The translations under genes were made by a program, and so were the position numbers. A stretch of 21,378 nt of DNA from a virus: UHGV virus genome UHGV-0079970. One strand, written 5' to 3'. How positions within the stretch are numbered: position 1 is the stretch's first letter; each line of letters begins with the position of its first letter. The notes beneath the pieces are model-generated. The model was not told the DNA's origin. It saw only the letters and a list, made by a program, of their open reading frames with translations, and made no database searches. Positions 2,008 through 15,620 of the stretch are shown here, piece after piece.

Positions 2008-3057
2008 TCAAACGATTAAATCCTGAACTTCCCTGACTGTCTGCTCAAAACGTCCGGTCTCCAGTTCAACGCCAATCGCACGACGCCCGAGCGCCAGTGC
2101 AGCTTTTACCGTTGAACCTGAGCCCATAAAAAAATCTGCAACCAGGTCTCCCGGACGACTGCTTGCGCTGATTATCTGCTGCAGCATTTCTGCCGGTTTT
2201 TCGCACGGATGTTTCCCGGGATAGAACTGCACCGGTTTATGTGTCCACACATCCGTGTACGGCACCTGCGCCGTCACACCAAAATACCGCCGCAGATGCT
2301 TATATTCACTATGCAGCTCCACATACTGCCGGTTCAGTGACGTATACGTATCCACCAGCTGGTGGTGGGGCTTTTCCAGTTCACCGCGCTGATGTTTCTC
2401 TTCTGCCACCCGGGCAAACAGCGACTGTAATTTCAGATAATCGCTTTCGTTCGGTAGCTGCCACTGACTGGCACTGAACCAGTGCGACACCATGTTTTTC
2501 TTTCCTGTGGCATCTGCAATCTGTTTTGCCGTTATCCCCAGGGCAGCTCGCGCATCACGAAAGTAAGAAATCAGCGGGGCCATCACATGCTGTTTCAGTG
2601 CACTGCCCTTCGCCGCATACCCGGCATCTTTCGGACGATACGGCCCCTGATAATGTTCCGCGAACAGAATGCGCTCTGTGGCGGGGAAATACGCCCGCAG
2701 GCTTTCCTTGTTGCATCCGTTCCAGCGTCCGGACGGCTTCGCCCAGATAATATGGTTCAGCACACTGAAGCGTTCACGCATCATGATTTCGATATCAGAT
2801 GCCAGGCGATGACCACAGAACAGGTAAAGACTTCCGGCAGGTTTCAGCACCCGCCAGAACTGCGCCAGACACTGGTCCAGCCACTTCAGGTAATCATCGT
2901 CGCCCTTCCACTGGTTATCCCAGCCCTCGGGTTTCACTTTAAAGTATGGCGGGTCTGTGACTATAAGATCGACAGAGTTTTCCGGTAAGGTCTGGATAAA
3001 TTCCAGGCAATCAGCGTTGATTAACTCACAACTGGATATTTTTACAGTATTAGCCAT
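2008..3057 (-). CDS. N6-adenine (or N4-cytosine) DNA methyltransferase, beta-class
   Basis: 349-aa ORF; motif IV LIVTDPPYF near the N-terminus and AdoMet motif FFMGSGST near the C-terminus (order typical of beta-class amino-MTases). Confidence 0.8.
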   Translation of the reverse strand: MANTVKISSCELINADCLEFIQTLPENSVDLIVTDPPYFKVKPEGWDNQWKGDDDYLKWLDQCLAQFWRVLKPAGSLYLFCGHRLASDIEIMMRERFSVLNHIIWAKPSGRWNGCNKESLRAYFPATERILFAEHYQGPYRPKDAGYAAKGSALKQHVMAPLISYFRDARAALGITAKQIADATGKKNMVSHWFSASQWQLPNESDYLKLQSLFARVAEEKHQRGELEKPHHQLVDTYTSLNRQYVELHSEYKHLRRYFGVTAQVPYTDVWTHKPVQFYPGKHPCEKPAEMLQQIISASSRPGDLVADFFMGSGSTVKAALALGRRAIGVELETGRFEQTVREVQDLIV

Positions 3058-3193
3058 AGATCAATAAGCACTTCTCTGATAGGCTCATACCGCTTTTGCG
3101 CAAAGCAGATGGGCCTGAGGTTTGCTTGTGACCCCAACGCATGAGCAGATGGCTGGCAGGTGCCGCTAACACCCACCAGCCGCCCATTACCAC

Positions 3194-3221
3194 AAATAAA
3201 AAAGCCTTCACTGAGGAAGGC
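3194..3221 (-). terminator. Rho-independent terminator (minus strand) at the 3' end of the small wHTH gene
   Basis: Minus-strand 6-bp stem GCCTTC / GAAGGC (plus coords 3216-3221 / 3204-3209), 6-nt loop, then TTTTTTATTT; the stop codon of the small ORF lies inside the stem. Confidence 0.5.
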
Positions 3222-3405
3222 GTCTGTAACAACCGAACTGATAATCTGCCAGACCCGCCATAACAAGCTGGGTCAGTATTAACTGGCAACGTTCGCGTGA
3301 AAGGTAAGTATTCTGCGCAATTTCCCCGACGGTCGCCGGTTCGGTGACGCTTAATTCATTAAACACCACTCTGGCAGTTTCGGTCATATCCTGCTGTTTT
3401 AGCAT
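3208..3405 (-). CDS. Small winged-helix-like DNA-binding protein (65 aa), hypothetical regulator
   Basis: ATG at 3405 preceded by AAGGGA; product MLKQQDMTETARVVFNELSVTEPATVGEIAQNTYLSRERCQLILTQLVMAGLADYQ... has a helix-turn-helix-like pattern (VGEIAQNTYLSRERCQLILTQL). The ORF track extends it to 3642, which I consider unlikely. Transcribed divergently from the DUF262 operon. Confidence 0.4.
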   Translation of the reverse strand: MLKQQDMTETARVVFNELSVTEPATVGEIAQNTYLSRERCQLILTQLVMAGLADYQFGCYRRLPQ

Positions 3406-3528
3406 GTCTTTTTCCCTTTTCTGGTTAACGTGACATACCAATAACTCTTGTCTGAAAAGCCAGCAAGCTGAAAGACCGGTATTCGCAACCACCAGCACGT
3501 TTAACGTACTGCGCCGTTTTTCGGACAC

Positions 3529-3548
3529 AAAAAACCGCCTGGCGGCGG
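3529..3548 (-). terminator. Possible minus-strand terminator upstream of the small wHTH gene
   Basis: 5-bp GC stem (plus 3535-3539 CCGCC / 3544-3548 GGCGG), 4-nt loop, followed on the minus strand by T6 (plus 3529-3534 A6). Short stem, so weak. Confidence 0.3.
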
Positions 3549-3597
3549 GTTTAAGCTGTGTGGCGTAGTAACCACTCTTAACACGATATAATATTTT

Positions 3598-3626
3598 TTG
3601 CGTACGCGTTATAGTTTTCTTACAAT
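3598..3626 (+). promoter_or_regulatory. Candidate sigma70 promoter for the DUF262-HEPN operon
   Basis: -35 TTGCGT (3598-3603), 17-bp spacer, -10 TACAAT (3621-3626), in an AT-rich intergenic region; SD AAGGAA (3646-3651) 7 nt before the ATG at 3659. A separate perfect TATAAT at 3587-3592 lacks a -35. Confidence 0.35.
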
Positions 3627-3658
3627 CTATTTCCAACTCCAATTAAAGGAACAGTGAT

Positions 3659-4816
3659 ATGACCACACTCAAAGAACTCAAAGAAGAGCTTGCTCAGATT
3701 CAAGATGAAAACGCGAAAAATAGAAAAAAAGCTGAAATTGCAGCCTTGGTCACTTCTGCCGACAACGAGATTAGGCTTGCTCAGAGAAATATTGGATACA
3801 ACGTACGTGAATGGACCGTTGAATTAATTGTACAAAAGTATGGCAATAATCTTGAAACTGACAAAAACGAACTTTTTATTCCTGATTATCAACGCGATTA
3901 CAAATGGGATATCAAAACAGCCTCTCGATTCATCGAAAGTATATTATTAGATTTTCCAATCCCGTACCTCTACATCTCCGACGTATTTAATGAAGATCCT
4001 GAGTTGGATGGTCGTGTAGAAATTATTGACGGTTCACAAAGGATTCGCTCAATTTACTACTTTTGGAACAATCAGTTTGAATTGAAAGACTTAAAAGAAC
4101 TCAAAAGTTTAGAGGGCTTCAAATTTTCAGATCTTTTGGCTAGCCGCCAGAGGCGATTTTTAAGGGCATCACTAAGATTTATTGAATTGAAAGGTGATGT
4201 TGAGGAGCAACATAGAAGAGATTTATTCGAAAGAATAAATTCAGGTGTTAAGAGACTGGAAGCGATGGAGGTTAGACATGGTTCAGATGCGGCCACTTCA
4301 ATTTTCTATAGGGATGTTGTGACTCCTTGCTCAACAAATCCACTTTTCGCTAGTCTAGCTCCATTATCAGACCGGAAACGTTCGAATGGCGATCATCGTG
4401 AGTTAGTTTTGAGATTTTTTGCATACTTAAATGATTTAGAAAATTATAAGGGTTATGTCGCTCCTTTTATTGACAATTATCTTAATGTTCAGGCCGAAAG
4501 GGTCACACAACAAGATGTAGACAAATTTAAACATGATTTTGAAAGCATGCTTGCTTTTGTAGATGCTCATTTCCCTATGGGGTTTAAAAAGACACCAACA
4601 AGCAAAACCACCCCCCGTGCTAGATACGAAGCCATAGCAGTGGGAACTGCTCTTGCCTTAAAAGCCAATCCACATCTACAGGCTCCGGTTATTCCTGTAG
4701 GAGACTGGCTGTTTGGGGAGGAATTTGAAACCATAGTTACTGCTGATAGTGCCAACAACACCAGCCAACTCAAAAACAGAATATTTTATGTCAAAGATAA
4801 ATTATTAGGAATGTAA
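3659..4816 (+). CDS. DUF262 / ParB-like (GmrSD N-terminal type) domain protein, 385 aa; no recognisable DUF1524/HNH nuclease domain
   Basis: Motifs DYQRDYKW and IIDGSQRIRS (DGQQR-type DUF262 signature), later LFERINSGVKRLEAME; N-terminal ~60-aa coiled-coil-like extension. Strong RBS. AT-rich (~37-41% GC in hand-counted 100-nt samples). Confidence 0.75.
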   Translation: MTTLKELKEELAQIQDENAKNRKKAEIAALVTSADNEIRLAQRNIGYNVREWTVELIVQKYGNNLETDKNELFIPDYQRDYKWDIKTASRFIESILLDFPIPYLYISDVFNEDPELDGRVEIIDGSQRIRSIYYFWNNQFELKDLKELKSLEGFKFSDLLASRQRRFLRASLRFIELKGDVEEQHRRDLFERINSGVKRLEAMEVRHGSDAATSIFYRDVVTPCSTNPLFASLAPLSDRKRSNGDHRELVLRFFAYLNDLENYKGYVAPFIDNYLNVQAERVTQQDVDKFKHDFESMLAFVDAHFPMGFKKTPTSKTTPRARYEAIAVGTALALKANPHLQAPVIPVGDWLFGEEFETIVTADSANNTSQLKNRIFYVKDKLLGM

Positions 4817-4818
4817 CT

Positions 4819-5508
4819 ATGAGTTTGATTGATTTAAGAGATGAATACGAAGAAAGAGCAAGAGATATTATGGAATTGCTTTCTCTTGCGTCATCTTTAG
4901 AGGCTCAGACTCAGCAGTTAGATCAGCAAACGCATAAAGATGAAATAGAATCAAATACCCTTAGGGTTAACATTTTAAAATCATCCGTGCACATGATGCT
5001 GTACAATCAGGTTGAAAACACTGCCAGAGGATGCATTGAGTCAATTTATGACCATTTGCAAGATAATGAAGTAAATTACGCATCACTCAGGGAGAAATTC
5101 CAAGTAAATATCTTGCACCGTATCATTTCAGATAATGAATCGGGAAAATCTCTTTATCAAAAAATTGGTTCCGATATATCTAAAAGGATCATTTCAGCCT
5201 CATTAAACATACGTAAAGAATTCAATGGTAATGTTTGCAAGTCTGTATTGCACAAAATAACACAAGCTTACGGAATAACTGTTGCAAACTCACCAGAGTG
5301 TAGAAATGGTGTTGACTTAGATTTACTTAAAGATATCAGAAATGAGCTGGCACATGGAAGTACCAGCTTTTCTAAAAAAGGTCAAATAGACCCTTTAGAA
5401 GAAGTCAAATCGAGGTCAGAAAGAATTGATCTATATTTGCGTTTATTAATCAACTCAACAGAAAATTATATTACCTCTAACGGGTATTTATCCCCTCAAC
5501 ATGTCTGA
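4819..5508 (+). CDS. HEPN-motif protein (predicted RNase-type effector), 229 aa
   Basis: ATG 2 nt after the upstream stop (translational coupling) with AGGAA SD; canonical R-[N]-x3-H motif RNELAH (5338-5355) in the C-terminal third; rest mostly helical by composition. Confidence 0.6.
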   Translation: MSLIDLRDEYEERARDIMELLSLASSLEAQTQQLDQQTHKDEIESNTLRVNILKSSVHMMLYNQVENTARGCIESIYDHLQDNEVNYASLREKFQVNILHRIISDNESGKSLYQKIGSDISKRIISASLNIRKEFNGNVCKSVLHKITQAYGITVANSPECRNGVDLDLLKDIRNELAHGSTSFSKKGQIDPLEEVKSRSERIDLYLRLLINSTENYITSNGYLSPQHV

Positions 5509-6517
5509 TAAATGTTTCCCCTATTATCTGACCAATTATAGGGGGAACAGCATTTCCAATCATTGTCCCCAATTTTTGGAATGAAAAAGGCGTCTCCTTG
5601 TCAAGGAATTTATAATCCATTGGAAAGGATTGCAAAATCGCAGCTTCACGCAAAGTTATGGCGCGATTTTGCTCAGGATGGCCAAATCGTCCATTTCCAT
5701 ATCCATAACACTGGGTAGTTATCGTAGGGCTAGTATCGTCCCAAACCATCCGTCCATAAACGCTTTTATAGGTAGCACCTGAATTCTTTTTATGACAGTC
5801 TGCTCTAATTTCTTCAGGCCAGTCATCCCACGTACCACCAGGTAAAGAATGCATGATTCGTTTAAGATTGATATCCATCAATTTAGGCGAACGATGCAAG
5901 GGATCGCTTTCCAGCTTCTCACCTGCCCCTACTTTTGGCAACCTACCAATAGCATCCTTAACAGTAACTTTACGGCTAACTTTTTTTTGATCAAGGCTGA
6001 TCGGCCCCAATTGGGAACCAATTAGAATTAATCTACGTCTATTTTGAGGTAAGCCATACTCAGAACATCTTACAACGTCGTACCACAAATGATATCCAAG
6101 AGTCTTTAATGCACTAACAAACCCTTCAAAAACCTTATGGTTTCTAAGTTGAGGAACATTCTCCATCGTCACAAGCTCTGGCATGACATCACTTACAAGC
6201 CTTTGAAACTCATATAACAAACGCCACTTTGTATCGTCTTTACGGCTATTTGGATTACGATACTTGGAAAACGGTTGGCAAGGAGCACATCCAGCAAGCA
6301 ATCTAATATTTCCTTCCTTGAACATAGCAGACACATCGCAGGATTGCAGTTCTGTAACTGACTGATTAATGAACTGCGTTAAAGGATTATTGCTCTCAAT
6401 AGCAAAACGGCAGGATTCATCAATATCAATACCATGAGAAACCTCAATCCCGGCTTTTTTTAGCCCAAAAGTTAAGCCCCCCGCACCACAAAAAATGTCT
6501 ACTGCCTGAATGTTCAC
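5477..6517 (-). CDS. C5-cytosine DNA methyltransferase (Dcm/type II M family), 346 aa
   Basis: Motif I DIFCGAGGLTFG, catalytic PCQ in GCAPCQPFS, ENV, QNRRRL, GNAV. Start is GTG at 6517 with GGAG 6 nt upstream. 3' end overlaps the HEPN gene tail-to-tail by 32 bp. Confidence 0.9.
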   Translation of the reverse strand: MNIQAVDIFCGAGGLTFGLKKAGIEVSHGIDIDESCRFAIESNNPLTQFINQSVTELQSCDVSAMFKEGNIRLLAGCAPCQPFSKYRNPNSRKDDTKWRLLYEFQRLVSDVMPELVTMENVPQLRNHKVFEGFVSALKTLGYHLWYDVVRCSEYGLPQNRRRLILIGSQLGPISLDQKKVSRKVTVKDAIGRLPKVGAGEKLESDPLHRSPKLMDINLKRIMHSLPGGTWDDWPEEIRADCHKKNSGATYKSVYGRMVWDDTSPTITTQCYGYGNGRFGHPEQNRAITLREAAILQSFPMDYKFLDKETPFSFQKLGTMIGNAVPPIIGQIIGETFIRHVEGINTR

Positions 6518-11013: not shown

Positions 11014-11204
11014 GGACGCACCTCCGCCGTAGTTACGTATTTAACCGGGCTACCTTTCATTGAGATGGTTTCACACATCTCTGCCGCTTTCAGTTCCGCT
11101 GTTTTTCTGGATTTATAGCGACGGTGCCAGACAGATACATCCGTGCGAACTGATACATCGTTTCTGTATTCCGTAGTGGAGATGATGATTTCGTAACTAA
11201 TCAT
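11010..11204 (-). CDS. Hypothetical protein, 64 aa
   Basis: ATG with AAGGAGG 7 nt upstream; ATGA overlaps with both neighbours. Confidence 0.45.
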   Translation of the reverse strand: MISYEIIISTTEYRNDVSVRTDVSVWHRRYKSRKTAELKAAEMCETISMKGSPVKYVTTAEVRP

Positions 11205-12052
11205 GGGCGAACCTCCTTGTCAGAACCATTCAGCCTGGAATCAACAAGTGCAGCGCCAAAAACAGCATCACCAACACGGTCGTACAGTTTGCTAGCCAGC
11301 GGAGATTCAACGGCCTTAAGCATTGGATAAAGCTGGCTTGTCCAGATTTGATGGATTTCACGCAAATGCAGGTATACGCCTCTGGCGTTTCGTGCGACAG
11401 CTGACATATCAGACGCATCGGCACCTGATAAACTCTTCTCCATCAGGTTAAAGGCGTTGATGTATGCCTCTTTGAACTGGGCAGCACGTTTACCAGTGAA
11501 GCCCATGGCAAGAAACGCAAAACCGTCGCGGGTGATTTGGTAACAAGGGAGTTTGCGGCCTGATGCGTCGGTGTATTCACTTAACACAAAATTGTGTTCA
11601 GTAAATTCAGCGGAACATTCGAGGTTTCTAATTCTATCTAAAACCCGCTCATGCCGTTTAGTAAAGTAATTAGCTACTGCAAGAGATGTGGTGACAACGC
11701 GACCATTGATAATCGTGATTTCAGGGTGAGATTGGGTTGGGAGAGTAGTCATGGTGACAGCCCCTATGTTGAATTCAATGAACTCACCACCAAGGCTTTC
11801 CACGACCATATAGGTGGTGAGACGTACAGGGGTGGAAATACCGGTCAACATAGAACCCGGCCCAACCGAAGTTGGCCCTGCACGCCCCACCATAATTTGG
11901 GTGTAACGATGCTCATGACACGAAAAAACCGCATGAGCGCGGTTGTGCTCTATATTGAATTTCGGGTTTCCACGCCCGGCACCCGCTTTATAAGGTGCCT
12001 GAGCAGTGTAACGTCCCGGAATTGCAGAATCAATATGCTGGTGGCGGATCAT
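11201..12052 (-). CDS. Rha-family phage regulatory protein with an N-terminal extension, 283 aa
   Basis: C-terminal half has Rha-like motifs (SLAVANYFTKRHERVLDRIRNL ... ITRDGFAFLAMGFTGKRAAQFKEAYINAFNLME); N-terminal ~100 aa (IDSAIPGRYT..APYKAGAG..IMVGRAG) is paralogous to the next gene. GGGAGG RBS. Confidence 0.6.
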   Translation of the reverse strand: MIRHQHIDSAIPGRYTAQAPYKAGAGRGNPKFNIEHNRAHAVFSCHEHRYTQIMVGRAGPTSVGPGSMLTGISTPVRLTTYMVVESLGGEFIEFNIGAVTMTTLPTQSHPEITIINGRVVTTSLAVANYFTKRHERVLDRIRNLECSAEFTEHNFVLSEYTDASGRKLPCYQITRDGFAFLAMGFTGKRAAQFKEAYINAFNLMEKSLSGADASDMSAVARNARGVYLHLREIHQIWTSQLYPMLKAVESPLASKLYDRVGDAVFGAALVDSRLNGSDKEVRP

Positions 12053-12711
12053 AGGTGCACCTCCCGTTGATTACGACGGAACGCGGAGTGACCCTGGACG
12101 GTTTCAGCCTCATGGAATGCTTCAATACAGCTCTCGTAGTACCGCATTGTGCGCAGACTTAACCCAAGCTGAAGCATCATCAGACCATCAAGGGTGATGT
12201 AATAACCACGCAGGGAGTCACCGTAGATGTGATAAGTACCCGGTATGAAATTGCGGGTAAAAAACTCGCGTGAGCAGTTCAGATACTCGATTTTGTCAAC
12301 GATGTTCTGGTGCATGCGCTTGAAATGGCAGGCAACATGCAGGGAGAAAATAACGGCCTTGCCGTTGACGACTTCGATTTTTAGGAATGGGGAAGTTAGG
12401 ACAGTAGCCATGATGGCAGCCTCCGTTGACAGTGAAAAACTTCCACCACCGGAAACGCCAATTTCACTGGTGGTGAACTGGACGGGGTTGGCGTAACCGG
12501 CGTCAACGGAGACCGGCGCACCTTTCGGTGCCCCCGCCCAGCCCACCATAATCTGGATGTGAGCAAATGCGGACGATAAAAAAGACGCTGGCGCGTCATA
12601 CATCGCCGTTGACAATTTCAGGACGCCAATCCCGGCACCCGCTTTATAAGGTGCGGAGACAGTGTAACGTCCCGAAATTGCAGAATCAATATTTGGTCTT
12701 GAAATGATCAT
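12049..12711 (-). CDS. Paralog of the preceding gene, Rha-like (more diverged), 220 aa
   Basis: Aligns along its length with the 11201-12052 product (MIISRPNIDSAISGRYTVSAPYKAGAG ... IMVGWAG ... FSLHVACHFKRMHQNIVDKIEYL ... ITLDGLMMLQLG). No obvious SD at its ATG. Confidence 0.5.
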   Translation of the reverse strand: MIISRPNIDSAISGRYTVSAPYKAGAGIGVLKLSTAMYDAPASFLSSAFAHIQIMVGWAGAPKGAPVSVDAGYANPVQFTTSEIGVSGGGSFSLSTEAAIMATVLTSPFLKIEVVNGKAVIFSLHVACHFKRMHQNIVDKIEYLNCSREFFTRNFIPGTYHIYGDSLRGYYITLDGLMMLQLGLSLRTMRYYESCIEAFHEAETVQGHSAFRRNQREVHL

Positions 12712-12819
12712 ATAGCTGCTGATATCTTTAGAACTGTTCTTGGATGTTTCGGAGCCGTTTTATGCGAAACAGCTCCCCGTTATTGATGTTGAGTGAGCCG
12801 GGTTACTCCCGGCTTTTTT

Positions 12820-13527
12820 TCACCGCTGCCAACCAATAACCTGAAATAACCCCATTTTCGGGTGATACCAGCGAGTCCCTCGCGGTTCTGCTTCCTCCAT
12901 AACCCGATAAAAAGCAGCCATAAACGGTTCCACAGCAACAATTGCGCGACGTGACAACAATCCGTCCGGCGTCATGAACTCATGTGTGTCTGTAGGAATT
13001 TGATAGGCGTTCACCAGATTGCGGCATTTATCATCTGACAAACCGGTTTTTGCTTTCAGTTGGCGATATCCGGCATAGCCCTCACGAATAGTGCCCTTTT
13101 TAATTTGCTCGACTGTTTCAGCAACGTGGCTGACTTTTTCTTCCACCTGAGTGATCCGTTTCTGTTGGCGAACGGCTTCAAGAGCCATCGCGGCAACCAT
13201 TTCGATTTCGCTCATTGGCTTACGGATCTGTTCTTCCAGTTCGCGCCAGCGATCTACCAGGCGAGCTGTGAATTCAGGACAGAGCTGTGCGACGACAATG
13301 ATGCTGTCGCGCTTACCTCGTTCACCTTCGAATACATACGCGCTAGAAAATCGGCGAGGCCCAAGTGATTGTTTATTCTCAATTTCCACAGTCTGTGGAA
13401 ATTGGATGATTCCCTTTTTAGCCAGTGTTTCAATAGTTCTCTTAACACTATCTGGTCGGCTTCCCACCAGCTCTGCGATCTCAACGCTGGTCATGGATGC
13501 TTTGCCGTTAAAAATTGCGGTGTTCAT
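12820..13527 (-). CDS. Phage regulatory / antirepressor-like protein with N-terminal Rha/AntA-like DNA-binding region, 235 aa
   Basis: N-terminus MTSVEIAELVGSRPDSVKRTIETL resembles the start of Rha/antirepressor domains; AGGAGA RBS 8 nt upstream; first long gene of the rightward-equivalent early operon. Confidence 0.5.
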   Translation of the reverse strand: MNTAIFNGKASMTSVEIAELVGSRPDSVKRTIETLAKKGIIQFPQTVEIENKQSLGPRRFSSAYVFEGERGKRDSIIVVAQLCPEFTARLVDRWRELEEQIRKPMSEIEMVAAMALEAVRQQKRITQVEEKVSHVAETVEQIKKGTIREGYAGYRQLKAKTGLSDDKCRNLVNAYQIPTDTHEFMTPDGLLSRRAIVAVEPFMAAFYRVMEEAEPRGTRWYHPKMGLFQVIGWQR

Positions 13528-13751
13528 TGTTGGTCTCCTGTGGGCTTGTCATCTTCTGTATTCGCTAGACTTGGGTGTGTATATGGAATGCTCGGATCCA
13601 GATGACAAAGAATGGCAACATCCTCCGGAACACCTCGCGTTTTCCACTTTCCAACACCTTGACTGCCACGAGGCCTTCCTTTCTTTGGGAACCTGCGACC
13701 AATAGCGGCATTGGTTTTAAATTGAATTTTTAATATTTCATAAAGGGTCAT
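13524..13751 (-). CDS. Hypothetical small basic protein in the cro position, 75 aa
   Basis: Divergent from cI with a ~110-bp intergenic region carrying repeated operator-like motifs; stop overlaps the next gene start. No clear HTH or SD, so function and even reality are uncertain. Confidence 0.3.
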   Translation of the reverse strand: MTLYEILKIQFKTNAAIGRRFPKKGRPRGSQGVGKWKTRGVPEDVAILCHLDPSIPYTHPSLANTEDDKPTGDQQ

Positions 13752-13862
13752 TCTTTAGTCTCACACCAGATACTTTGTTATTCAACGATGTTAACCACAG
13801 GAATCCAAAGTATCAAGAAATTCTGTTACTTTAGTATCAACAGCCATGAGAGGAGAAGAAAA
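13752..13862. promoter_or_regulatory. Immunity-region intergenic with repeated operator-like motifs (OR-like)
   Basis: GATACTTTG (13769-13777) and its reverse complement CAAAGTATC (13806-13814) form a perfect 9-bp inverted repeat; a further AGTATCAA copy at 13833-13840; the same motif recurs downstream of cI. Confidence 0.4.
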
Positions 13863-14519
13863 ATGAAGTCTTTAGGTGAACGTCTCATCAACGCACGGCA
13901 AAAAGCTGGGTTAACACAAGATGCGTTGGCTAAAAAAGCTGGGATCACCAGAGTTGCAATCAGTAAAGCCGAGCAAGGCCTTACAAAAAGTTTCAACGGT
14001 GACACCCTTTTTAAAGTTGCAGCTGCACTGCGGTGTTCACCGCAGTGGCTTCAGAACGGAGATGAAAAAGATAAGCATTGGGAAAATAATGTTAAGAGCT
14101 GCCCACAGAGAGACACAGCACACTCTTACCCTGTAATTAACTGGGTTCAGGCAGGATTATTCGCAACTTCTGGTGATGACTACAACATGTATGATCAGGA
14201 TAATTGGAGGCATTCTGTAAAATACGCTGGTGAGAGGGGGTTCTGGCTGGAAGTGCACGGAGACTCAATGACTTCGCCCGTAGGAATAACATTTCCTGAA
14301 GGAATGTCGATCCTTGTCAACCCAGATAAAGAAGTTTTTTCAGGGTGTTACGTCATCGCCAGAAAAAAATCTACCAATGAAGCAACATTCAAAAAATATA
14401 TTTCTGACATGGGAAAGGCGTTTCTAAAGCCCCTTAATCCACAATATCCAATCATAGAAATGGACAATGATTGCGAAATAGTAGGTGTTGTGGTTGATGC
14501 CAGGTGGGATATTTTCTGA
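13863..14519 (+). CDS. cI: CI-type prophage repressor (N-terminal HTH, C-terminal S24 LexA-like autopeptidase)
   Basis: ATG at 13863 with GAGAGGAG SD (the ORF track's 13788 start is an upstream extension). HTH LTQDALAKKAGITRVAISKAEQG; catalytic Ser in GDSM and Lys in FKK; candidate Ala-Gly cleavage site in VQAGLF. C-terminal domain closely resembles lambda CI as I recall it. Confidence 0.9.
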   Translation: MKSLGERLINARQKAGLTQDALAKKAGITRVAISKAEQGLTKSFNGDTLFKVAAALRCSPQWLQNGDEKDKHWENNVKSCPQRDTAHSYPVINWVQAGLFATSGDDYNMYDQDNWRHSVKYAGERGFWLEVHGDSMTSPVGITFPEGMSILVNPDKEVFSGCYVIARKKSTNEATFKKYISDMGKAFLKPLNPQYPIIEMDNDCEIVGVVVDARWDIF

Positions 14520-14544
14520 CCAGAAACAAAACACAAAAAGAAAC

Positions 14545-14580
14545 CAAAGTATCAAAAATCACTTGCCACACCTTGATACC
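14545..14580. promoter_or_regulatory. Operator-like inverted repeat downstream of cI (OL-like), possible promoter for the early-left genes
   Basis: CAAAGTATCAA (14545-14555) and inverted TTGATAC (14573-14579), same motif family as upstream of cI; possible -35 TTGCCA (14563-14568) and -10 TACCAT (14586-14591) with 17-bp spacer. Confidence 0.3.
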
Positions 14581-14622
14581 TTAGTTACCATAAAACAAAG
14601 TTCGTAACTGAGGTATCATCTC

Positions 14623-15126
14623 ATGATCAATAAAGCTACAACTCTTGACTGTCTCGAAGAACTGAAAAACCTCGGCAGCCTCATTACACTAATAGCAAAA
14701 GCAACACCTGATGCTACGCTCTCTAGCGATATAGAGTCATGCGCAGGACTGGCATGGGATATGACAAATAGCATATCCAGAAAGCTATCGTCAGCAATGC
14801 TTTTACAGAACAAAAATTCTGCAATCAACAACCGTCTTCGCACCCAACGCGAAGCCTGCGGCTTAACAACCGCCGAACTCGCCAGGCTGCTCGATCTCGA
14901 TGAAGAAATTATCATCCAGTGGGAGAGCGGAGAGTATGAACCAACTATCAGTATGCTTATCCCACTGGCAAATATTCTTGGCTGCGATGCGATGTGGCTG
15001 TTAACTGGTGAGGTTACTCCTCCGGAGCAACCAAAAAGTGAGGAGCAGCAACACCATGACGCATCTCAACAAGTTTGCCCCTTATCTCGCGAAGCTCTTC
15101 TACGGAAGAACCAATACCAATGGTGA
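14623..15126 (+). CDS. XRE-family HTH protein with N-terminal domain of unknown function, 167 aa
   Basis: HTH block LTTAELARLLDLDEEIIIQWESGEYEPTISMLIPLANILGCD; GAGG SD 9 nt upstream; first gene after the OL-like site. Confidence 0.55.
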   Translation: MINKATTLDCLEELKNLGSLITLIAKATPDATLSSDIESCAGLAWDMTNSISRKLSSAMLLQNKNSAINNRLRTQREACGLTTAELARLLDLDEEIIIQWESGEYEPTISMLIPLANILGCDAMWLLTGEVTPPEQPKSEEQQHHDASQQVCPLSREALLRKNQYQW

Positions 15127-15274
15127 CATAATCGCCGCTTCGCCCCTCAAGGTACATGCGAACATTTTTATCAATCATTGCGGAAACAGTCTTAATATGA
15201 AAACACTTCTGAGACTCGCTATATAGCAGAACATATAAGTCAGCTGAGGAAACCATGAAAAAGTTCGAAAACAT
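15014..15274 (-). CDS. Possible small minus-strand ORF, 86 aa (uncertain)
   Basis: ATG at 15274 with GGAG 7 nt upstream, but overlaps the 3' end of the XRE gene and the start of the next plus-strand gene; may be spurious. Confidence 0.2.
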   Translation of the reverse strand: MFSNFFMVSSADLYVLLYSESQKCFHIKTVSAMIDKNVRMYLEGRSGDYVTIGIGSSVEELREIRGKLVEMRHGVAAPHFLVAPEE

Positions 15275-15620
15275 AACTGTTCTCCATGTTGATGACTTTG
15301 ATTATACAAACCCGGAACTTCTCCCGGAGGTTGTAAAGGCAATAGATGTTGCCGATATAGTGATTAGAGAAAAGAGAATTGTCAAAAACAGGCTCGTATG
15401 CACTTCAGGAGCAATGACAGAAACAACCTCACAGCAAGATAATTACGAAGGCATTTGCCTGGAGCCTGATTCATTTGCGGTAAATGTTTATCATTTATTG
15501 CATGCAACACAGGTATTACATATGTCCAGTAATCACGAAACGAAAACACTCGGCAGCGAAATTCTGAATTTTGCATGTGAGTATACAAAAGCTGCTGCCG
15601 AAAAAGAATTAGCGCAATAA
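15255..15620 (+). CDS. Hypothetical protein, 121 aa
   Basis: ATG with GAGGAAA SD; no recognisable motifs. Confidence 0.5.
   Translation: MKKFENITVLHVDDFDYTNPELLPEVVKAIDVADIVIREKRIVKNRLVCTSGAMTETTSQQDNYEGICLEPDSFAVNVYHLLHATQVLHMSSNHETKTLGSEILNFACEYTKAAAEKELAQ

Follow-up and report, generated by a model that had tools for sequence, protein, structure and literature searches.

The 21,378-bp stretch of DNA analysed here (the window) is a phiP27-type lambdoid prophage. Its region 13400-15300 shows 95.5% DNA identity to phage phiP27 and about 86% to a set of Stx1a/Stx2a-converting phages, and the phiP27 immunity type is also found in Stx1a-, Stx2a- and Stx2e-converting phages. A search of 5426 complete E. 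coli genomes found the same 1.2 kb in 204 of them, located in the chromosome every time. Among 50,697 deposited phage genomes, a repressor with more than 90% identity to that of the window is encoded only by phiP27 and ten Stx phages, the next-best deposited phage repressor outside the phiP27 group being 44.5% identical. As judged from these comparisons, no characterised phage appears to be identifiable as homoimmune with the window prophage. The gene order is that of lambda, with cI directed toward the early-left operon and the early-right operon divergent from cI. The leftward (early-right) operon starts with a 75-aa gene (13524-13751, minus strand; phrog_4749, unknown function, possible helix-turn-helix (HTH)), which occupies the cro position and is followed by three Rha-domain genes and by DnaC-like and DnaB-like replication genes. 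On the plus strand, 3' of cI, are found a 167-aa gene with a C-terminal HTH_3 domain (14623-15126), Ead/Ea22-like genes and an integrase gene. The three successive Rha-type-domain genes lie at 11201-13527 on the minus strand, directly after the cro-position gene, and include two paralogues (11201-12052 and 12049-12711), each with an Ash domain at its N-terminus. Elsewhere in the prophage, positions 2008-6517 carry a DNA-modification/defence-type gene cluster, which includes an N6/N4 methylase (2008-3057, minus strand), a protein with a GmrSD N-terminal domain (3659-4816, plus strand) and a C-5 cytosine methylase (5477-6517, minus strand).

The cI-type repressor gene (13863-14519, plus strand) encodes a protein of 218 aa with matches to Pfam HTH_3 (1.7e-14) and Peptidase_S24 (3.2e-22). 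The C-terminal two thirds of the protein match the lambda repressor (PDB 3bdn) with an E-value of 8.7e-34, and its VQAG/LF, GDSMT and TFKK segments align with VQAG/MF, GNSMT and TFKK of lambda cI. In this alignment the Ala-Gly cleavage site and the features of a Ser/Lys-type S24 self-cleaving domain are present. The best matches of the N-terminal domain in a phmmer search against PDB are 434 Cro (1e-8), P22 C2 (1.4e-8) and 434 repressor (1.9e-4). As read from these similarities, the predicted protein is a 434/P22-type HTH joined to a lambda-cI-type S24 autopeptidase domain. The start at 13863 is preceded by GAGGAG at 13850. A longer ORF starting at 13788 (243 aa) was rejected because 13863 has this ribosome-binding site and because relatives carry a frame-breaking 1-nt indel upstream of it. 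Within the repressor coding sequence, at 14026-14047, there is a perfect 10-nt inverted repeat, CACTGCGGTG/CACCGCAGTG, with the two arms 2 nt apart.

The initial annotation had described an operator-like motif of 9-11 bp in five copies on both sides of cI. By direct reading of the sequence all five were confirmed: GATACTTTG at 13769-13777, the exact 11-mer CAAAGTATCAA at both 13806-13816 and 14545-14555, AGTATCAA at 13833-13840 and TTGATAC at 14573-14579. As had been proposed, they occupy the intergenic region that separates cI from the divergent early operon and, again, the DNA directly 3' of cI. The list was correct but incomplete, a sixth copy, GTAACTGAGGTATC, being present at 14604-14617. 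Moreover, the 9-11 bp motif is not the unit. Alignment with relatives reveals as the unit an imperfect dyad of 14 bp; its consensus is GATAC-TTTA-GTATC, and the window holds six copies. In each of them a strong GTATC half is combined with a weaker one; individual sites match the consensus at 10-13 of 14 positions, and their arms are self-complementary at 3-4 of 5.

Statistical enrichment, which was to be expected for genuine sites, was found for the clustering of the motif and not for its loose occurrence throughout the window. Searched over the whole window with up to two mismatches, the 11-mer gave 10 matches for 8.2 expected, and AGTATC was found 8 times for 6.7 expected, so neither is enriched. 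However, the two intergenic regions, 214 bp in all, hold 6 of the 45 GTATC/GATAC pentamers of the 21,378 bp, against a chance expectation of about 0.45 (Poisson probability roughly 1e-5, our own arithmetic). The window has five matches to the pattern GWWWC-N4-GTATC, both orientations being counted, and none of them lies outside these two regions. The two regions also have in common a 12-nt word, CCAAAGTATCAA, and nine 8-mers, a number reached by only 0.66% of control segment pairs of the same geometry taken from the window. The motif signal thus comes from the clustering and the 14-bp dyad and not from how often the word occurs. These data bear on the idea that the copies are chance repeats or recurring AT-rich promoter hexamers such as TTGATA, which is the predicted -35 hexamer at one of the sites (OR-b, below). 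The absence of window-wide enrichment would be in line with it, and by our calculation chance alone would give about a hundred exact 11-mer pairs in 21 kb. Nevertheless, it is contradicted by the clustering and, as described below, by the ranking of the sites with a cross-species matrix, by footprints, by conserved offsets and spacings, and by covariation with the recognition helix of the repressor, and we regard its probability as negligible.

For the cross-species ranking, a position weight matrix (PWM) was built only from the six sites of a relative, L105, of which the repressor is 86% identical to that of the window and the spacers have diverged. The five best distinct positions for this matrix in the 21-kb window are 13825, 14575, 14604, 14540 and 13801, all with at least 14.5 bits, a level for which random Markov-1 sequences gave a mean of 0.09 matches. 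A 12.9-bit match at 4727, in a coding region, scores about as high as the best match in random sequence (mean 12.3) and was not retained. A possible seventh site, CATTCTTTAGTCTC (13749-13762), which overlaps the start codon of this 75-aa gene, was likewise set aside, its score being 9.0-9.6 bits and its sequence not conserved in diverged relatives.

Three of the six predicted sites form a right set upstream of cI, with centre spacings of 32 and 24 bp. The early-right (PR-like) promoter, predicted by a sigma-70 consensus scan, is at 13788-13816 on the minus strand, with -35 TTGATA (13816-13811), a spacer of 17 nt and -10 TAACAT (13793-13788). These hexamers are kept in relatives, with -10 variants TAATAT in L003, TAAATT in L133 and TACTAT in L120. 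OR-a (OR1-like; GATACTTTGTTATT, 13769-13782) is located just downstream of the -10 and covers the expected transcript start. Its L105 PWM score is only 8.7 bits, because it has T at position 13782 where most relatives have C; its right half is thereby changed from TTATC to TTATT, which lowers the match. The same T is found in a minority of relatives (e.g. L052, L058, L060 and L075), and it could alter the stability of the switch. In another relative (L003; Stx2_12E129) the site is a perfect palindrome, GATACTTAAGTATC. OR-b (OR2-like; GAATCCAAAGTATC, 13801-13814; 14.5 bits) includes part of the predicted early-right -35, and corresponds to an invariant block, AAAGTATCAAG, in 24 unique relatives. 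OR-c (OR3-like; GTTACTTTAGTATC, 13825-13838) is the top PWM match with 17.5 bits and is conserved in relatives, its centre being 24 bp from that of OR-b in all relatives examined. The consensus scan yielded no promoter for the repressor gene itself. A candidate -10 for a PRM-like maintenance promoter, TAGTAT (13832-13837, plus strand), can be read inside OR-c and is the only plausible one; it has no good -35. This arrangement would suit a promoter that depends on an activator and limits itself, as lambda PRM does, and is the weakest part of the model proposed here.

The other three sites form a left set downstream of cI. The predicted early-left (PL-like) promoter is at 14563-14591 on the plus strand, with -35 TTGCCA (14563-14568), a spacer of 17 nt and -10 TACCAT (14586-14591). 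It is conserved in relatives, as TTGCCC/TACCAT in L105 and as TTGACA/TACATT in L133 and L135, the latter two being examples of hexamers better than those of the window. OL-a (GAAACCAAAGTATC, 14540-14553; 16.1 bits) lies upstream of the -35 and is conserved in relatives. OL-b (GATACCTTAGTTAC, 14575-14588; 17.5 bits) is in the spacer and the -10; its invariant block is TGATAC.TTAGTTACCAT, and all relatives that share the recognition helix have the site. OL-c (GTAACTGAGGTATC at 14604-14617; 16.2 bits), just downstream of the predicted transcript start, is conserved in the phiP27 clade. It contains the GAGG Shine-Dalgarno sequence of gene 14623, so its conservation could partly be for translation. 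Both predicted outward promoters point away from the repressor gene and overlap site copies.

Phylogenetic footprinting with unique sequences from relatives, 24 upstream and 29 downstream, shows site blocks that do not vary or hardly vary, separated by DNA that does. Besides the blocks at OR-b and OL-b, CTACTTT.GTATC and GTAACTG.GGTATCA stand out. The first site downstream of cI in L105 reads GATACTTTAGTATC. With a reverse PWM made from the sites of the window, three sites upstream and two or three downstream of cI are located at corresponding offsets in relatives from E. coli and in relatives of Klebsiella, Providencia and Photorhabdus type, whose repressors are only 52-94% identical to that of the window (52-74% overall for phages from other Enterobacterales). 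The upstream positions are kept among relatives with the same recognition helix: the offsets from the cI ATG, -94, -62 and -38, are exact in L105 and L133, and in other relatives they differ by a few bases, with the 32- and 24-nt spacing unchanged. Taken together, the cI-type repressor, the positions of the sites, the overlapping predicted promoters and the footprints speak for the OR/OL-like arrangement around cI that had been suggested initially.

To see which factor follows the sequence of the sites, the retrieved relatives were grouped by the predicted recognition helix of their repressor. The helix TRVAISKAE(Q/L)G is associated with GATAC half-sites in 53 unique intergenic pairs, which represent 24 distinct proteins. 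Repressors with SRVTISKIELG are accompanied by GAAAC/GTAAC-N4-GTTTC sites, without GATAC, and a Serratia repressor with SRMAISKIEMG by TAAAC-N4-GTTTA. From one helix group to another the half-site changes, and the positions of the sites and the 32- and 24-bp spacings remain constant. By this sequence covariation, the repressor is the only factor that tracks the sites, since its recognition helix varies with them and the neighbouring genes do not; a host protein is likewise excluded. The proposal that the copies could determine immunity specificity is strengthened by the same covariation, and the sites can be considered as candidate determinants.

An alternative is that the sites are mainly bound by another phage protein, the product of the 75-aa or of the 167-aa gene, and that the cI-type repressor acts elsewhere. 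Both genes lie next to site clusters. In the 167-aa protein (phrog_4739 and phrog_4836) an HTH_3 domain (Pfam 1.3e-10) with DicA/CII-like matches is found, and the AF2 model of the 75-aa protein (pLDDT 82) has helices compatible with an HTH, its best PDB fold matches being Cro proteins at a non-significant level (E of at least 1). However, the HTH domain of gene 14623 is absent in L120 and L129, which keep GTATC sites, so its product is not the site-binding factor. The 75-aa protein, for its part, is 94-96% identical between L133, with GTATC sites, and L141 and L148, with GTTTC sites, and these loci have no other DNA in common. Only the recognition helix of the repressor follows the site sequence, and binding mainly by one of these other proteins is very improbable. 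The 167-aa product is made of two parts, L120 and L129 encoding only the N-terminal one (65-71 aa), and its version in L003 has 215 aa. No N-like antiterminator is evident at 14623-15126.

The gene at 13751-13524 had been taken for cro. It carries no recognised Cro domain, the protein having no Pfam or NCBIfam match, and comparison of its profile with Cro/YdaS-like neighbours gives a weak hhalign probability of 16%. It also shows no covariation with the sites. Between L133 and L141 this gene is the only DNA in common, over 213 bp (positions 1500-1712) with 95-96% identity. It is a discrete mosaic cassette among phages that differ in repressor, operators and downstream genes. This could mean that the 75-aa protein acts independently of the operator sequence, or that it does not act as a Cro. 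A classical operator-specific Cro role is doubtful, because the gene is exchanged independently of the immunity type, and no Cro partner that would bind the same operators is evident.

OL-b and OL-c are the arms of an inverted repeat at 14574-14618 (plus strand), with 15-bp arms that are 93% complementary and a loop of 15 nt. As RNA it has a predicted folding energy of -20 kcal/mol and a z-score of -5.0, the arms being fully paired with one G-U, and the predicted hairpin would bury the Shine-Dalgarno sequence of gene 14623. Such a hairpin would arise only in read-through transcripts from cI. The promoter/terminator scan detected no intrinsic terminator after cI in the phiP27 clade. Relatives of Klebsiella, Providencia and Photorhabdus type possess one and have no strong repeat; a clear GC hairpin with a T-run is seen right after cI in L120, L126-L129, L133 and L135. 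One may thus ask whether OL-b and OL-c are primarily an RNA element, that is, a read-through hairpin that hides the ribosome-binding site of gene 14623 or stalls the polymerase. The stability of the fold and the distribution of terminators would suit this, as would substitutions in relatives (L096, L100/L101 and L105) that keep the pairing as wobble. Against it, OL-b and OL-c are each a good operator match alone, and OL-b lies within the promoter in all relatives, even where the repeat is missing. No RNA family of Rfam was matched in 13300-15000. As the repeat occurs in one clade only, its correlation with terminator loss counts as a single event. Furthermore, RNA and operator roles are not mutually exclusive. 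We consider a primary RNA role unlikely, though clearly less so than binding by another phage protein; the hairpin may be an additional role of this DNA, a proposal that is based on one clade.

The best explanation is therefore that the six 14-bp dyads are the operators of the cI-type repressor of the prophage, a right and a left set flanking cI. From the sequence comparisons we hold this to be very probable. The system would then be an OR/OL-type switch of the phiP27 immunity group, a new example of an ordinary kind of system. By analogy with lambda, 434 and P22, repressor dimers would bind each dyad through the 434/P22-type HTH. Binding at OR-a and OR-b would block the early-right promoter, and binding at OL-a, OL-b and OL-c the early-left promoter. 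OR-b may serve to activate a weak repressor promoter and OR-c may autoregulate it. The lambda-type C-terminal domain could provide cooperative binding between neighbouring sites, and a loop between OL and OR across about 770 bp is possible. RecA-stimulated self-cleavage at the Ala-Gly site would lift repression. The sequence of the sites would set the specificity of phiP27-group immunity. A more speculative version is that the switch works without an immunity-specific Cro and that, in the phiP27 clade, the OL-b/OL-c repeat is also an RNA hairpin which silences the first early-left gene and replaces the lost terminator. We see this version as rather unlikely, if somewhat less so than a primary RNA role of the repeat.

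Within the literature covered, which did not extend to the phiP27 genome paper, we found no operator description for the phiP27 immunity type and no binding, transcript-start or immunity results for the repressor. The present work provides a concrete operator map and a consensus for this immunity group; the layout is the expected one, here for an immunity type without an operator study found in that literature. The map could predict which prophages are homoimmune. The series of helices and half-sites (TRVAISKAEQ with GTATC, SRVTISKIEL with GTTTC and SRMAISKIEM with GTTTA) is ready-made for specificity swaps. The understanding of how lambda-like switches work is left unchanged by the map.

The window resembles lambda in several respects. 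The S24 self-cleaving C-terminal domain of its repressor is clearly homologous to that of lambda cI. Three sites lie in the interval from cI to the divergent early-right promoter; three more follow cI and cover the early-left promoter, which has the same direction as cI. The integrase and Ead/Ea22-like genes are early-left, and the DnaB/DnaC-like replication genes are early-right. Neighbouring operator sites of lambda are 24 bp apart, as are OR-b and OR-c. However, the sites of the window have 14 bp versus 17 bp in lambda and their sequences are unrelated, the DNA-binding domain belongs to the 434/P22 HTH_3 type, and the distance between OL and OR is about 770 bp versus about 2.4 kb. There is also no terminator or rex-like gene after cI in the window, nor a recognisable operator-specific Cro. 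With phage 434 the similarity concerns the N-terminal domain of the repressor, which matches 434 Cro (E 1e-8) and 434 repressor (2e-4). The operators of 434 have 14 bp, with conserved outer bases, a less constrained centre and a three-plus-three layout, and the sites of the window are alike in this. In contrast, the half-site is GATAC in the window and ACAA in 434, and the recognition helix is TRVAISKAEQ versus TQQSIEQLEN. The consensus GATAC-TTTA-GTATC is unlike the operators of 434 and P22, and the window prophage is presumably not homoimmune with either phage. The Stx phages 933W and H-19B are also lambdoid and have OR and OL sets bound by cI. In 933W three OR and two OL sites are described, and in H-19B four OR sites (PMC8065619), whereas the window has three plus three sites, with different sequences. 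The repressors of these two phages are distant from that of the window, with about 35% identity or less.
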